A stretch of DNA of 64,000 nt, taken from NCBI GenBank assembly GCA_028692415.1, contig JAQUXM010000002.1:9204-73203 (forward strand), in the 5' to 3' direction. The first letter of the stretch is position 1. Each line of letters opens with the position of its first letter. This DNA is from Syntrophomonadaceae bacterium (GTDB taxonomy: Bacteria > Bacillota > Syntrophomonadia > Syntrophomonadales > Syntrophomonadaceae). Of the stretch, positions 10,345 to 59,084 are shown in pieces. Under the pieces are notes generated by a model. It had not been told where the DNA came from. It saw nothing but the letters and a program-made list of their open reading frames with translations, and did no database searches. A program made the position numbers and the translations under genes.

Positions 10345-11817
10345 TTAGCGTTTAAGGTTGACCAGTTCCTGAATCATCTCATCAGAGGTGGTTATTATTC
10401 TGGAGTTGGCCTGAAAACCACGCTGGGTTGTAATCATATCGGTAAACTCTTCCGACAAATCGACATTGGACATCTCCAGACTGTTGGGGATGATGTCGCC
10501 CTTGCCACTCTCTCCGGGAGGAGCTATGACCTCAACGCCGGAATTGGATGACTTCTGAAACAGTGTCCCTCCTACCTGATTCAAACCCCCAGGGTTTTCA
10601 AAAGTAGCCAGTGCCACCCTTGCCAAACTCTTGCTTTCTCCATTATCGTAAATGCCTTTGATGGTCCCGTCAGTACCCACATTGTAACTAATCAAACTGC
10701 CATCCTTATATCCGTTCTGGGTAGCAGTTCCGCTAGCATCGGAATCATACTGGGTGAATTCATTTAAATCAACGGTAAATTCAATGGTTTGCGCCATCGC
10801 CCCATCAACCGGTGTGGTATCATTCCTCTCGATGGTAAGTTTTACCTGTGACAACCAAGGAGAATTCTCGGGATCCTGTATTTTTCCGTCCTCATCAAAC
10901 TGTAGATTATAAATTCTAATCACATTTTGCCCTGATTCCAGACCCAGGTCACCGGTTGCAGGCGCATCCTCAGTAGCAGTAGTTAGATCTACCGCAGTAA
11001 AATCTGCAGCAGTATAGCCTGTTGCCTGGTCAAATGTTGAGTCCAGGGAAATATCACAAGCCCAGTTGGTCAGAGCTGGGGGGCCGGCATCCATACCGGT
11101 CTTAAAAAAGCGCATGTTAACGGTGACCGGCCTGCCTACCGAGTCATATACATCCCTGGAAACAATCAATGTATCATCACTTGAACTGGGATATTGCGAA
11201 TCATCGGTTGGGTCGATATTGGCTGCAGGCGTACCTACTTGCGGTATTTCCATACCGGCATATAGATTGCCCGTAACCGTCATCTCGGTAGTGGTTTTGG
11301 CATCACATTTTTTAAAACCACTTATATCAATATTTCGCATATTGGCATTGGTGTCTATTATCCAATCTCCGCTGTCGGGATCTTCCAACCCGGCAGTCAG
11401 CCAGCCCTGAACATTATACCCGTTGGCGACATTGGTCAGCATGCCTTCTTCATCAAAATCAAAATTGCCACAGCGGGTATAATAGTCCTGTTCACCAGTT
11501 TTCAACACAAAATATCCATTTCCGTCCACAGCCATATCAGTCATCCGATTGGTCACCGTAGTAGCTGCCGCGGTATGAATCTGGTCCACACTGCTTACGG
11601 CCATTCCCAAACCAATACCCATGGGGTTTGTCCCTCCCCGGCTGCCGGAAACAGCACCTGTAGCGCCTTTCATCGACTGGTAAAGGGTATCCTTGAATAC
11701 TACCCGGCTCTTCTTGTAACCCGCGGTATTGATATTAGCAATATTATTGCCTATTACATCCATCCTGACCTGGTGGTTCTTTAATCCCGAAACCCCAGAA
11801 TACATGGAACGCATCAT
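10345..11817 (-). CDS. flgE: Flagellar hook protein FlgE
   Basis: 490 aa. Has the rod/hook N-terminal motif (SGLKNHQVRMDVIGNNIANINTAGYK) and the conserved C-terminus (ITTQRGFQANSRIITTSDEMIQELVNLKR). Confidence 0.95.
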   Translation of the reverse strand: MMRSMYSGVSGLKNHQVRMDVIGNNIANINTAGYKKSRVVFKDTLYQSMKGATGAVSGSRGGTNPMGIGLGMAVSSVDQIHTAAATTVTNRMTDMAVDGNGYFVLKTGEQDYYTRCGNFDFDEEGMLTNVANGYNVQGWLTAGLEDPDSGDWIIDTNANMRNIDISGFKKCDAKTTTEMTVTGNLYAGMEIPQVGTPAANIDPTDDSQYPSSSDDTLIVSRDVYDSVGRPVTVNMRFFKTGMDAGPPALTNWACDISLDSTFDQATGYTAADFTAVDLTTATEDAPATGDLGLESGQNVIRIYNLQFDEDGKIQDPENSPWLSQVKLTIERNDTTPVDGAMAQTIEFTVDLNEFTQYDSDASGTATQNGYKDGSLISYNVGTDGTIKGIYDNGESKSLARVALATFENPGGLNQVGGTLFQKSSNSGVEVIAPPGESGKGDIIPNSLEMSNVDLSEEFTDMITTQRGFQANSRIITTSDEMIQELVNLKR

Positions 11818-12880: not shown

Positions 12881-15202
12881 CTAAACCAAAAAATTCATGG
12901 TTCCGTTACTGCCTATGCCATAATCCTGCTCGGATATGGCACTTGCTTCAATTTCATCAATATCAGCATTGCCAAGCCCGGTCTGGTATCCTTGATCCGT
13001 GAAACTAGGCTGGTATTGGCTGCTCATAAACTGCTGCCGCTGCCAGGATTCTTGGGAGTTTTGGCCGGAACCGTCAAACATCCCACCGTTGTTTAGTTGT
13101 ACATTGACTTCGGTCTTTTCCACTCTAATTCCCTGAGCCTCCAGCGTTTGTTTGAGCGTATTCAGGTTGCTGTCCAGCATCTGCTTTACTTGATGGCTGT
13201 CGGTAATAAACCGGGCAGTCACCAATCCTTCTTCGACTGATATCTTGATGGTCATCTTGCCCAAAAATTCAGGCTGCAATTGAATCTTCATCTCTGAAGA
13301 ATTCAGCTTTACCATCATTTCTGCTTTCTTAACAATTTGGTCCAGAACTTGCTCCGGCTCCGCAATCAGGCTGCTGGTTGTCGGTAAAGCTGTACTGCGT
13401 ATTAGCTGGGCTTTATCACTTTCTAAACCAGTTTTGCCTAGTAACAAAAGGCTTGTTTCTCCTTCTGCTTTTTCGCCTTTGACCACTGTTTCAGCTTTTG
13501 CTTGAATACCTTCACCGCTATCAGTCTTTAGCCGTTTGCTTTCGTATTCTATCAGCTTTTTAACATCAGTAGGCGTTTGCTTGTTTTGAGCTTTTTCAAG
13601 CTTCGTTTCCATTCCGGCAACGGCCTTGAATCGTATTTCACTCTGAGTTGGTTTGGATTCGCTTTTCATGCTTTCTGTACTCGCCTGATCGCTTTCGGCA
13701 GTCATATTTGCTTGTTCGGGCACTATGATTGAAGCTGCTTTTTTATCGCCTGAAGTTAGCTTGTTTACCAATACTCCCGCATCAATGACTGTTTCCGCAC
13801 CTAGCACCTTGGTTTTTCTTCCCGGATTATTGGCATCTGTTAGTTTTGCATTCTGCTGGCTGGCTATACCAAGCTGTGTTAGCACCGCCATATTTTGAAC
13901 TGTAGGAGATTCACTTACCGTTACTGCTTCCAGTTCAAGTTCACTGCCGGTTTCCATCTCTGCTTGTTTCTCCGGCTTATCCATACCAGGCTCCATGACC
14001 ACTTCTGTACTAATTGCCTCAGTTTCACTTGCAGGTACTGCTTCCAACCCAAGCGGTTCACTGCCGGCATTCGTCTCGGTTTTAATTTGTGCTTGCTTCT
14101 CCGGCTTATTTATACCAAGTTCCATAACCACTTCTGTACTAATTGCCCCAGCTTCACTTACAGGTACTGCTTCCGGAGCATGCTGTTCACTGCCCGCATT
14201 CGTCTCGGCTTTAATCTGTGCTTGCTTCTCCGGCTTATCCATACCAAGCTCCATGACCACTCCTGCACTAATTGCCCCAGCTTCACTTGCAGGTACTGCT
14301 TCCGGAGCATGCTGTTCACTGCCGGCATTCGTTTCGGCTTTAATCTGTGCTTGCTTCTCCAGCTTATCGACTGCCATTTCGGGTTGAGCCGGAATAATTT
14401 CACTAAGCAATGGCTTTAAATCAATAGCTGAATCTTGAATTGCCAGCGGCAGTTTGATTTCCGGAACTTGTTTTATGGGAGCAGCTTCACCCGTTATAGG
14501 TTCCATATGGTTTGCAGCTGTTTCATCGCTAATGGACCCGATTGTTATTGTTTCCATCACCGGAACCTGCTTTGACAAAACCACTTCCGACAAGCTTAGC
14601 TGTTGCAGTCCGCTTACTTGCTCCTTTGGCATTCCCCCATGGGGTAAAGGATTTTCCTGGAGAGGGATAACTTGAGCAGTATCTTGCGGAAGCTTAATAA
14701 GCAAATCAGCCCCATCAACCTCTAAACTTGCAGATTCACTAAGCTGTGCTGCAGTTTCCGCCGGCAACTCCGGAATTATTTCCTGAGCCATTAATACTGG
14801 AATATCACTTAAGTTCATATTGTTCGATACTTCCTGCGCAGTACTTTCCAGTTTTAATTCTTCGTCAACGGCAAGCTCTTCATCTATTGCTGTTAATTCC
14901 CTTGGCACTGCTTGCCCGGTTTGCTTCCGACTCACTGGAAAGGGTTTTTCAAAAGGATCACTTTCGATTATTTGCTTGGCAGGATAGGAACTAATACTAG
15001 TTTCTGGCCTTTCTACAACTGCTTCTTTGGTGCTGTACGGCAAATCTTTACTCTCGCTACTGTTGCGGGTGAGTTTTTGCAGTTGTTTATTGAAGCTGTT
15101 TAATCCTGCTTTGGCCTTTGGGGAAGACAATCCAGCTTTTTCAGACTTCCTTGACATGACTGGTACGGCTGCCTGCATCTCTACCATTTGCACTTGTGTC
15201 AA
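12881..15202 (-). CDS. fliK: Flagellar hook-length control protein FliK with an internal 43-aa tandem repeat (the track ORF extends to 15235)
   Basis: C-terminal Flg_hook-like domain (MKIQLQPEFLGKMTIKISVEEGLVTARFITDSHQVKQMLD). Located between the ylxF-like gene and flgD. GGAGGTG lies 5 nt before the TTG at 15202. Confidence 0.85.
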   Translation of the reverse strand: MTQVQMVEMQAAVPVMSRKSEKAGLSSPKAKAGLNSFNKQLQKLTRNSSESKDLPYSTKEAVVERPETSISSYPAKQIIESDPFEKPFPVSRKQTGQAVPRELTAIDEELAVDEELKLESTAQEVSNNMNLSDIPVLMAQEIIPELPAETAAQLSESASLEVDGADLLIKLPQDTAQVIPLQENPLPHGGMPKEQVSGLQQLSLSEVVLSKQVPVMETITIGSISDETAANHMEPITGEAAPIKQVPEIKLPLAIQDSAIDLKPLLSEIIPAQPEMAVDKLEKQAQIKAETNAGSEQHAPEAVPASEAGAISAGVVMELGMDKPEKQAQIKAETNAGSEQHAPEAVPVSEAGAISTEVVMELGINKPEKQAQIKTETNAGSEPLGLEAVPASETEAISTEVVMEPGMDKPEKQAEMETGSELELEAVTVSESPTVQNMAVLTQLGIASQQNAKLTDANNPGRKTKVLGAETVIDAGVLVNKLTSGDKKAASIIVPEQANMTAESDQASTESMKSESKPTQSEIRFKAVAGMETKLEKAQNKQTPTDVKKLIEYESKRLKTDSGEGIQAKAETVVKGEKAEGETSLLLLGKTGLESDKAQLIRSTALPTTSSLIAEPEQVLDQIVKKAEMMVKLNSSEMKIQLQPEFLGKMTIKISVEEGLVTARFITDSHQVKQMLDSNLNTLKQTLEAQGIRVEKTEVNVQLNNGGMFDGSGQNSQESWQRQQFMSSQYQPSFTDQGYQTGLGNADIDEIEASAISEQDYGIGSNGTMNFLV
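13915..14372 (-). repeat. 129-bp (43-aa) in-frame tandem repeat inside fliK: three full units plus partial flanking units
   Basis: The unit start ccggcttat recurs at 13972, 14101 and 14230, and as ccagcttat at 14359, exactly 129 bp apart. The protein repeat is ...PEKQAQIKAETNAGSEQHAPEAVPASEAGAIS..VVMELG.DK. Confidence 0.95.
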
Positions 15203-15242
15203 TCTTTCACCTCCTTTTCGATAAAATCCCCTCATCTAAGGG

Positions 15243-36746: not shown

Positions 36747-36799
36747 TCCAAGTTACTAGAACACACGAATACTAAGGGAATATTTTGAATTTTAAGCAG

Positions 36800-36909
36800 C
36801 GGAAGAAACTGCGGAGCAGTTTTAACAACCGCTACAAAGCGGCCGGGGATTAGAACCCGCCGCCTGATTGGTTCGACCACTAGCGGGGGACATCTTTTCG
36901 CCTCGTTAT
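36800..36909 (-). repeat. Structured intergenic repeat 'R', copy A (spoIIGA 5' region)
   Basis: Aligns with 58430-58537 and 58662-58780. Shared blocks are cggaagaaactgcgg, ggggattagaacccgccgcc, ctagcgggg and ttttcgcctcgttat. Confidence 0.8.
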
Positions 36910-37005: not shown

Positions 37006-37040
37006 AAATCCTTAATGATTTTAATAATCCTAAAAGAGAC

Positions 37041-37072
37041 AAAAAACCGGAAATCATGAGATTCCCGGTTTG
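37041..37072 (-). terminator. Rho-independent terminator after ftsZ and the long hairpin
   Basis: Minus strand reads CCGGGAAUC-UCAU-GAUUUCCGG followed by UUUUUU. Confidence 0.65.
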
Positions 37073-37192
37073 AGGGCGATGAGCAGAGCAAATCTCTGCG
37101 TTTTTAGAAAAATCCGTTCAATCAGCGTAGCATTGTACGCCTCAATCACGGATTTTTCTCAATGCCTTGATCTTTTCTCTGCTCATCACCCT
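37073..37192 (-). ncRNA. Candidate structured RNA: 120-nt extended hairpin with a symmetric 17x17 bubble (6S-like design) in the ftsZ 3' region
   Basis: 16-bp outer stem (37073-37088/37177-37192), with one C.A that becomes G.U on the minus strand. Then a 17x17 nt bubble, a perfect 12-bp stem (37106-37117/37148-37159), a 7x7 loop, and a 5-bp stem capped by a 6-nt loop. A terminator follows. Confidence 0.3.
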
Positions 37193-54731: not shown

Positions 54732-54770
54732 ATTCTTATTCCGCCCTCCTTAAATATATACCTTAAATGT

Positions 54771-54829
54771 CGGAAGAAACTGCGGCCCAGTTTCTTCTGC
54801 ACCGTTGCAACGAGGCGATACCTCGTTAT
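54771..54829 (-). repeat. Structured intergenic repeat 'R', copy B (short form; rsmH-ftsL spacer)
   Basis: Sequence cggaagaaactgcggcccagtttcttctgcaccgttgcaacgagg-cgata-cctcgttat. Both termini and the first hairpin are present; the ~70-nt core is absent. Confidence 0.75.
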
Positions 54830-58386: not shown

Positions 58387-58429
58387 TCTACCTCCTCTAT
58401 TCTTTTTCCTGCACAATTCTTTTAAACAT

Positions 58430-58537
58430 CGGAAGACAGTTTCAACACCGTTGCAACGAGGCAGGATTAGAACCCGCCACCGGTTTGGTTAATAGCAACC
58501 TTATCGCTTAGCGGGGGGCACCTTTTCGCCTCGTTAT
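58430..58537 (-). repeat. Structured intergenic repeat 'R', copy C (44 nt upstream of the paaK start)
   Basis: Core and 3' terminus are nearly identical to copy D. The terminal ggaagaaac hairpin is degenerate. Confidence 0.8.
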
Positions 58538-58661
58538 ATATTTACAGCGATTAGCACAGCAACAGACAGTACTGCATTTAAAACAGATAGCAAAAGACTT
58601 AAAGCTAAGTTATAAGTTTAATTTAGTAATGGGATTTGATATGCAGGCAGGTTTTAAGCAT

Positions 58662-58780
58662 CGGAAGAAACTGCGGAGCTGTTTCTTCCGCACCGCTGCA
58701 ACAAGGCGGGGGATTAGAACCCGCCGCCGGTTTGGTTGATAGCAACCTCACGCCTAGCGGGAGATCTTTCGCCTCGTTAT
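58662..58780 (-). repeat. Structured intergenic repeat 'R', copy D (tandem with copy C)
   Basis: Most complete copy. Has a 10-bp hairpin (ggaagaaac/gtttcttcc), the closing helix aacaagg/cctcgtt, and two internal hairpins. Confidence 0.8.
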
Positions 58781-58822: not shown

Positions 58823-58875
58823 AAAAAACCCCACCGAGCCGTGATGCCGTAGTTTCAACCTGCAAAGCAGGTGGG
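58823..58875 (-). terminator. Possible terminator downstream of aspS
   Basis: Minus strand has CCCACC...GGUGGG followed by G and UUUUUU. The stem encloses ~34 nt, including an inner hairpin ACCUGC-UUU-GCAGGU, so this is atypical. Confidence 0.35.
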
Positions 58876-59084
58876 TACCCTCCCACATATTTTGATGTGT
58901 CCCAAATACCGGGCATGCACGCTATATGTGGAGATAAGTTCCCTAAATTTTTGTGTTGGCAAAAACTTAACAGCCATTCACGTACACAGCAGGGATTTCC
59001 TTTTCTCAGGTAAAATACTACCATATAATAGTCATTTCTTCAAGCTAAACAAGGTGCCATTATAGACCATTTTCTCCAATATTT

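Follow-up and report, generated by a model that had tools for sequence, protein, structure and literature searches.

The window, a 64,000-nucleotide (nt) stretch of a Syntrophomonadaceae contig that was analyzed over its whole length, carries four copies of a short structured repeat, two of which lie head to tail in front of a paaK-like ligase gene. A first-pass annotation of the same DNA had presented this pair as part of a paaK leader and the repeat as an RNA under selection on the gene-sense strand. Our analysis gives high confidence to a different conclusion, namely that the repeat is mobile and is not an RNA dedicated to a particular gene. The family to which it belongs is confined to a Syntrophomonas clade, and we favor, with moderate confidence, its assignment as a non-autonomous PATE-like element that is moved in trans by a single-strand (HUH/Y1-type, IS200/IS605) transposase. 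The family appears to be undescribed until now, though of a known element type, and no description of a Syntrophomonas repeat of such a kind was found in the literature searched.

All four copies are intergenic, lie on the minus strand and are located where they had initially been noted; three of them are full elements and one is a miniature. Alignments of the family, the junctions of tandems and sites without an insertion were used to refine their limits. Copy D (58654-58777, minus strand; nhmmer E 1.9e-33; covariance model 109 bits) is a full element extending from ACGAGG to GCTTAA, which begins 46 nt downstream of a 6S RNA gene and has TATA (58781-58778) directly 5' of it. Copy C (58422-58534, minus strand; nhmmer E 1.6e-26; 81.5 bits), a full element minus most of its 3' hairpin, is also directly preceded by TATA and ends ~35 nt before the paaK-like start codon. 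With the refined limits, copies D and C are separated by 119 nt instead of the 124 nt given previously. Copy A (36792-36906, minus strand; nhmmer E 1.2e-29; 90 bits) is a full element of the short-P2 subfamily, which follows directly upon AATA and lies between ftsZ and spoIIGA, ~45 nt upstream of the latter. Copy B (54763-54826, minus strand; nhmmer E 6e-08; 48 bits), located between rsmH and ftsL, is the miniature, with the core swapped for a 4-nt loop and the 3' hairpin present beside a closing hairpin AACGAGG-UAUC-GCCUCGUU; the rsmH stop codon TAA (54828-54826) takes its last base from the first A of this copy. Every copy in the window is preceded by (T/A)ATA. No fifth copy was detected in the 64 kb with a family-wide nhmmer profile and the covariance model.

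The family, described in the first-pass annotation as one of four copies, extends well beyond these. A DNA pattern consisting of the exact 5' end joined to the T-loop-like motif was searched in a species-representative genome collection and matched 42 stretches, all from Syntrophomonas or Syntrophomonadaceae except for one metagenome-assembled genome of the Tepidanaerobacteraceae, in which the copy (L041 3334-3417) is a 5' fragment that ends after the T-loop-like motif and abuts an open reading frame (ORF). The 8-kb loci around the pattern matches (numbered L0xx) together with the window provided a Syntrophomonas family sample of 384 kb in total, which contained 83 nhmmer matches and 72 matches to the covariance model (R1), many of them outside the pattern selection. 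Extrapolation from four copies in 64 kb leads to roughly 200 copies per genome, and in metagenome contigs that include the source organism the summed depth over the repeat was ~200-400x that of its flanks, a ratio to which other strains contribute. Viral contigs, plasmids and phages yielded no copies.

Nearly all copies are intergenic, and in co-directional gene contexts 31 were oriented with the genes and 6 opposite to them, while some copies were directed away from the nearest gene. The initial description of a real structured repeat family that is mostly co-oriented with genes is upheld by the larger sample; the co-orientation within the window is itself uninformative, because 54 of the 56 ORFs called there are on the minus strand. 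No common function connects the neighboring genes. Those downstream of the copies in the window, spoIIGA, ftsL and paaK, are functionally unrelated, and a Pfam census of 61 neighbor ORFs of 330-520 amino acids exhibited no recurrent theme among the 25 most frequent families listed; 118 families were matched overall, and most families with a single member fall outside the 25 listed.

The boundaries of the element and its target are well defined. Among the left flanks listed, ATA was found 5' of ACGAGG in 61 of 61 single copies, with mostly T or A at position -4, and the two tandem second copies in the same list had TTAA in this place. At the other end, similarity among family members stops at GCTTAA and is followed by A-rich variable sequence. 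Loose ends in metagenome contigs agree with these boundaries. Head-to-tail tandem copies, observed at four loci (L004, L015, L017 and L018), are joined as ...GATGYTTAA|ACGAGG....

The most direct view of an insertion was provided by the rsmH-ftsL junction, which in relatives reads ...AAATTATAG|GTATATAT, i.e. AAA TTA TAG | GTATATAT, and in the window ...AAATTATA[ACGAGG...TTAA]GGTATATAT, i.e. AAA TTA TA[A CGAGG ... TTAA]G GTATATAT. Comparison of the filled with the empty site places copy B within the former TAG stop codon, where it contributes the A of the new TAA with zero duplicated bases. At least 8 other loci have a TAA at the element start that serves as stop codon of the upstream ORF. A second filled and empty pair (L011 and L033) is compatible with no duplication, but is situated in an ambiguous run of A. 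A target-site duplication was not found at the empty rsmH-ftsL site, the tandem junctions or the L011/L033 pair.

The copies in the window were further compared with 80 mraZ loci of relatives taken from metagenomes (MraZ 60-80% identical, 616 kb). The covariance model matched twice in these loci and in no case at the positions of copies B, C or D. Both 6S RNA and paaK are present in 21 of the 80 loci, and in the 10 relatives in which they are directly adjacent the spacer measures 121-270 nt with no copy detected, compared to 437 nt in the window. Similarly, a contig with ~89% identity appears ~120 nt shorter at copy A. This absence at the same positions in the loci of relatives indicates that the window copies are lineage-specific insertions.

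Closer examination of the family revealed that its members share ends more than they share a core. In the copies outside the pattern selection conservation was highest over the first 10 nt at the 5' end and the last 55 nt at the 3' end. Full elements are 115-137 nt in size, miniature elements ~65-70 nt and long elements ~190 nt, with an overall range of 64-190 nt, and core-deleted miniature forms such as copy B recur. The same ends also enclose an unrelated core (...GCCTTGAGTGAAGYGAAMGGAATGG...) in L017 5487-5762 and L036 5918-6051, the former locus containing a head-to-tail array. The long subfamily (L004, L007, L008, L013-L016, L027, L028, L034 and L042; e.g. L013 1276-1465) carries a 55-nt module at a single internal site, GTGTTG|AAAC, in 12 of 12 cases. 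This module is flanked by a GTGTTG direct repeat, was never found outside its host element (12 of 12 inside), and on the sense strand comprises two small hairpins with UNCG-type loops (CUACGG/CUGCGG and CUUCGG).

RNAalifold, applied to a MAFFT alignment, returned a weak and partly conflicting consensus (-7.85 kcal/mol), and the structure was therefore imposed by hand and then tested. It consists of a closing helix (P1), internal hairpins P2 to P4 and a 3' hairpin (P5) on the family consensus TATA|ACGAGGYGAAAWATGTCCCCCGCTTCTTTAAGCGGTCGGGTTCCTATTAACAAAACAGGCGGCGGGTTCTAATCCCCCGCCTCGTTGCAGCGGTGTGTTGAAACTGCTCCGCAGTTTCTTCCGATGCTTAA|. In copy D, all on the minus strand, the 5' strand of P1, AACGAGG (58772-58778), pairs with its 3' strand, CCUUGUU (58700-58706), which is abutted by the GC-rich hairpin P4 (58707-58726) with the T-loop-like loop UUCUAAU at 58713-58719. 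P5 (CGGAAGAAAC...GUUUCUUCCG) occupies 58662-58690, with 7 nt (AUGCUUA) between it and the last element base (58654); in the family consensus the P5 helix is shorter and ends 13 nt from the right end. At the left, the near-terminal hairpin P2 is located ~20 nt from the end and is missing from miniature copies. In the alignment of 72 members 88.6% of the cells were paired, changes on both sides were observed at 25 of 36 pairs, and cells changed on both sides numbered 57 versus 17.9 +/- 3.5 in shuffles, figures that are somewhat flattered by the fitting of this alignment to the imposed structure. The paired fraction decreased to 35-50% in slid controls. The helices are real and maintained across the family, and the closing helix AACGAGG/CCUYGUU, the GC hairpin with UUCUAAU and the 3' hairpin, all recognized in the first-pass annotation, are kept across the 72 members. 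The short hairpin GGUUGCUAUCAACC reported with them is present as well, but is particular to the subfamily of the source organism. A further pairing proposed at that stage, the pseudoknot CCGCU/AGCGG, was rejected, being intact in just 24 of 55 copies and opposed by an uncompensated C.C in 16.

These features are best accommodated by a transposase supplied in trans, probably of the IS200/IS605 'peel and paste' type, that would act on the folded top strand. The unit ACGAGG...GCTTAA would insert immediately 3' of (T/A)ATA or TTAA and leave the target unduplicated. As the TTAA of the right end resembles the target, a new copy could land behind an old one and so give rise to head-to-tail tandems. 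Insertions would survive mainly in AT-rich intergenic DNA, often at stop codons and mostly in gene orientation, and the inserted copies would be passively transcribed within neighboring mRNAs. The size of the family, its insertion polymorphism and target motif, the boundaries and tandem junctions, the subfamilies, the maintained hairpins and the occurrence in transcriptome contigs are observed, whereas the type of transposase and its action on single-stranded DNA are put forward here as probable. The assignment to PATE-like elements and to IS200/IS605 is made because the repeat is non-coding and without inverted repeats or duplication, and because of its fixed 5' sequence, the spacing of its hairpins, its core-deleted forms and its orientation bias.

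Palindrome-associated transposable elements (PATEs) are non-autonomous derivatives of IS200/IS605-type elements that were defined in Haloquadratum walsbyi (PMC3119063). Like the Syntrophomonas repeat, they are too short for a transposase, have neither terminal inverted repeats nor target duplication, and have a short conserved sequence for targeting on the 5' side as well as hairpins that are located farther from the 5' than from the 3' end; both also occur in many copies, in terminal-only versions with the core deleted, and with other short sequences inside near the 3' hairpin (PMC3119063). They differ in that the host is a Clostridia-group bacterium instead of a haloarchaeon, in that the search here found neither an IS200/IS605 relative nor a TnpA/TnpB gene bounded by these ends, and in that the near-terminal hairpins of the Syntrophomonas repeat are unlike and its ends pair, closing a four-helix core. 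With no parent element or transposase found in the ~1 Mb sample, with unlike hairpins and with pairing ends, the repeat is a candidate member of the PATEs.

The IS200/IS605 elements insert 3' of a particular tetra- or pentanucleotide, and their orientation is biased relative to the lagging-strand template (PMC5027513). IS608 and ISDra2 resemble the repeat in a left end placed 3' of such a tetra- or pentanucleotide without duplication, in subterminal hairpins on one strand and in their genomic orientation bias (PMC5027513, PMC3201880). In contrast to the non-coding repeat, for which the mechanism would be as proposed above, they are autonomous with tnpA and with or without tnpB, and their target is TTAC or TTGAT, whereas here it would be (T/A)ATA or TTAA. 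The near-terminal hairpins of IS608 are alike and those of the repeat are not.

The pairing ends recall integron attC sites more than they recall IS608. As in attC sites, ends of the form AAC...GTT pair around a variable center, a folded single strand is a plausible substrate and the copies are co-oriented. The boundaries, however, are TATA|ACGAGG and TTAA| versus the G|TT of the attC core, a conserved 50-nt tail follows GTT, and the copies, dispersed among housekeeping genes, were not seen to form a cassette array. An attC site was therefore rejected as a candidate, since just the AAC...GTT of the RYYYAAC/GTTRRRY core sites was matched and the boundaries lie elsewhere.

Other small repeats, such as ERIC/IRU in enterobacteria, BOX in Streptococcus pneumoniae and bcr1 in the Bacillus cereus group, are like the Syntrophomonas repeat 100-200 nt in length, intergenic and co-transcribed. 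They share with it stable predicted folds, a modular composition with variable inserts and truncated forms, and tens to hundreds of copies. They are not known to be related to it in sequence. These elements have inverted-repeat ends and/or duplications (TA for ERIC, TTTAT for bcr1), and the Syntrophomonas repeat appears to have neither.

Several observations weigh against transposition by a single-strand transposase. A tblastn search of the ~1 Mb of loci with an approximate IS608 TnpA query returned only noise for a TnpA-like ORF, a search for left and right ends up to several kb apart yielded just a chance match inside a gene and no pair enclosing an ORF, and there was no transposase among the 25 listed of the 118 Pfam families matched by the 61 neighbor ORFs. 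The pairing of the two ends in P1 is not a described feature of IS200/IS605 elements, and the left (P2) and right (P5) near-terminal hairpins are unlike in sequence. At four of the sampled loci oppositely oriented copies lie within 8 kb, which makes the orientation biased rather than fixed. A bias derived from replication is here inseparable from one derived from transcription, and GC skew over 8 kb is confounded by gene strand. The case for insertion free of duplication consists of one clean comparison, with relatives that are ~75-80% identical, together with the tandem junctions and a single A-rich site that is ambiguous. Lastly, covariation, the T-loop-like loop and the UNCG-type tetraloops of the long subfamily are hints of a sense-strand RNA.

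It is on these hints that the strongest of the alternatives is built, a dispersed structured RNA module, perhaps spread by transposition, that would be retained for a cloverleaf-like sense transcript (P1 to P4, T-loop and 3' hairpin) and would function as mRNA stabilizer, as processing signal for an RNase recognizing a tRNA shape, or as the RNA that scaffolds or guides a transposon nuclease. We regard it as rather unlikely. In its favor are the helices kept with changes on both sides, the position of P4, which abuts the 7-bp P1 as a T-arm does on an acceptor stem, a loop (UUCUAAU) that fits the T-loop pattern, and the two UNCG-type loops on the sense strand of the long subfamily. To these can be added the sense orientation of 31 of 37 copies in co-directional contexts and the slightly lower divergence of paired compared to unpaired columns (10.7% vs 14.9%). 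The copies are also transcribed, at least as passengers, since assembled contigs of a culture transcriptome and several metatranscriptomes include them joined to flanking genes, and copy B lies inside the mraZ-rsmH-ftsL-ftsI cluster; as unstranded assembled contigs of RNA runs, these data speak to the presence of copies in transcripts and not to strand, RNA ends or abundance.

The case for selection on the sense strand had originally been argued from five positions at which substitutions give G.U instead of A.C. Three of these, in the closing helices of copy D (one) and copy A (two; ACGAGGCG/CGCUUUGU), were seen again by eye, but the pattern is not general. Over the paired positions of 72 copies G.U and A.C occurred at 117:89, a count that leaves out one P3 pair that is A.C in the consensus and in 43 copies. 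Relative to the consensus, C>T and G>A substitutions amounted to 8.6% and 7.0% in paired columns (ratio 1.23) and to 11.2% and 7.9% in unpaired columns (ratio 1.42), and this similarity of ratios identifies the slight excess of G.U as background mutation bias. Both strands fold equally well, with mean folding energies over 32 copies of -41.4 kcal/mol for the sense and -41.7 kcal/mol for the antisense strand, and the z-scores of the window copies were alike for both strands with either RNA or DNA parameters. Selection on a sense RNA is not supported by these data.

Resemblance to tRNA is limited to the T-loop-like hairpin that abuts the 7-bp closing stem. ARAGORN found zero tRNAs in the window, Rfam 15 at the gathering score matched 6S RNA alone there, and at E <= 10 copies C and D gave no RF00005 match, the best hit over the repeat being CRISPR-DR5 with E = 8.2. 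The first-pass annotation had recognized no known RNA class in the repeat, and this holds for both Rfam families and tRNAs. Additional points against an RNA module are the 6 antisense copies in co-directional contexts and the copies directed away from the nearest gene. Many copies also do without the core, T-loop hairpin included, and conservation is highest at the ends. An added role at the RNA level, in stability, in processing or as nuclease scaffold, may exist, and it is disfavored by the dispensable core and the balanced counts of G.U and A.C. A more specific version is very doubtful. In it, the T-loop cloverleaf would be borne by a transposon and recognized as RNA in operons, where it would resemble a tRNA and signal processing or stability; alternatively, it would be a stand-alone scaffold or guide RNA making use of a TnpB-type nuclease in trans. 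If this were true, the spread of a mobile RNA module would alter how numerous Syntrophomonas genes are controlled after transcription.

Improbable to a similar degree is a classical miniature inverted-repeat transposable element (MITE), i.e. a shortened derivative of a DDE transposon that has inverted repeats at its termini and duplicates a TA or TAA target. Such an element would agree with the size and copy number of the repeat, with its intergenic location and division into subfamilies, and with the TA-rich sequence on both flanks. Comparison by eye of the consensus 5' end with the reverse complement of the 3' end, however, gave no convincing terminal inverted repeat. Single copies read ATA|ACGAGG and tandem junctions TAA|ACGAGG, and models with TA or TAA duplication predict tandem junctions that are one A shorter than those seen. 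The empty rsmH-ftsL site also fits an insertion free of duplication. With regard to what the first-pass annotation had named as signs of a mobile element, copies in both orientations were found as a minority, target-site duplications were not found, and covariation is present.

A tandem cis-regulatory leader or riboswitch of paaK that senses an aromatic-acid or CoA ligand, suggested for testing in the first-pass annotation, is extremely unlikely, even though two stably structured copies intervene between the terminator of 6S and the start of paaK, copy C ending close to the start codon. Copies of the element are also found in front of spoIIGA and ftsL in the window and, elsewhere, in front of dozens of unrelated genes, and the covariance model detected none at the positions of B, C and D in any of the 80 mraZ loci of relatives, 21 of which have both 6S and paaK. 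Copy C lacks most of the 3' hairpin, no Rfam family is matched, and the ends are the most conserved parts while the core can be deleted or replaced, the opposite of what would be expected of a ligand-binding RNA. Copies D and C are 88% identical, about as near to each other as each is to the cross-species consensus, and their upstream flanks are unrelated. Together with the loss of the hairpin from copy C this points to two separate insertions between 6S and paaK, and on sequence grounds D and C look like independent arrivals and not like a duplicated regulatory unit. A promoter and terminator scan of the region gave no convincing site of either kind; a weak hybrid promoter-like site that uses TTGAAA of copy C together with its flank was given no weight.

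A tiny protein gene, in which GAGGTG as Shine-Dalgarno-like sequence, a spacer and ATG would precede a 19-codon ORF (MSPASLSGRVPINKTGGGF), the only one of the element, ending at the TAA of the T-loop, can practically be dismissed. Of the 72 copies, 21 (e.g. L026 953-1086) retain a start codon together with an unchanged stop, and the short-P2 subfamily differs in length by a multiple of 3 nt. Set against this are substitutions spread evenly over the codon positions (11.5%, 11.0% and 12.0%), a ratio of synonymous to non-synonymous codon changes of 32:85, and the fact that about half of the copies, including all of those in the window, are frameshifted or have no start codon.

For annotation, interpretation of the family as a mobile repeat means that its copies should be masked as repeats; entries for paaK, spoIIGA or ftsL should not present them as candidate small RNAs or riboswitches. 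The element is compact and abundant, and its insertion into TATA-like sites, in some cases precisely at a stop codon, apparently leaves the target unduplicated. Strain histories of the syntrophic fatty-acid degraders in digesters and landfills could be traced with its help, and the family offers a handle for finding its transposase. A reading at the RNA level, if true, would make the family a case of a structured RNA module that is mobile, but the present evidence does not favor it.

According to Pfam and Rfam the order of genes around the copies is hisS - aspS - 6S RNA - [D] - [C] - paaK-like ligase - ACT protein, mraZ - rsmH - [B] - ftsL-like - ftsI, and ftsA - ftsZ - [A] - spoIIGA - sigE - sigG. 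The 6S RNA gene, which the first-pass annotation had missed and which is context and not part of the element, is located at 58824-58998 on the minus strand (RF00013, 90.9 bits, E 9.7e-17). A terminator-like site had previously been attributed to aspS; the 6S RNA gene lies between aspS and copy D, and the site is probably the 6S terminator. A promoter-like TAGAAA-17-TATAAT of the 6S RNA gene is present at 59087-59059, and several metatranscriptomes hold related 6S sequences.

Other repeats were noticed in the same DNA. A long inverted repeat (37075-37190, minus strand) lies between ftsZ and copy A and is followed by a terminator-like hairpin (~37035-37066). Its center (37114-37161) had ~4x the flanking depth in metagenome contigs, so that the inverted repeat probably represents a further family of small repeats. 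A direct repeat of 30-35 nt resembling ATTAGCAATATTATTGCCTATTACATCCATCCTGA, with 70-80% identity, is found at positions 11734, 22056, 22489 and 33468 of the window and could reflect a motif conserved among paralogous genes. The ORF at 12884-15235, encoding a FliK-like flagellar hook-length protein, contains 3-4 tandem 129-nt repeats (13907-14367, minus strand) that are 76-88% identical. Among the sampled loci, L021 6758-6900 represents another high-copy sequence in S. wolfei-like DNA that is unrelated to the hairpin repeat, with a summed depth of ~11,000 versus ~40 for its flanks in a culture transcriptome.

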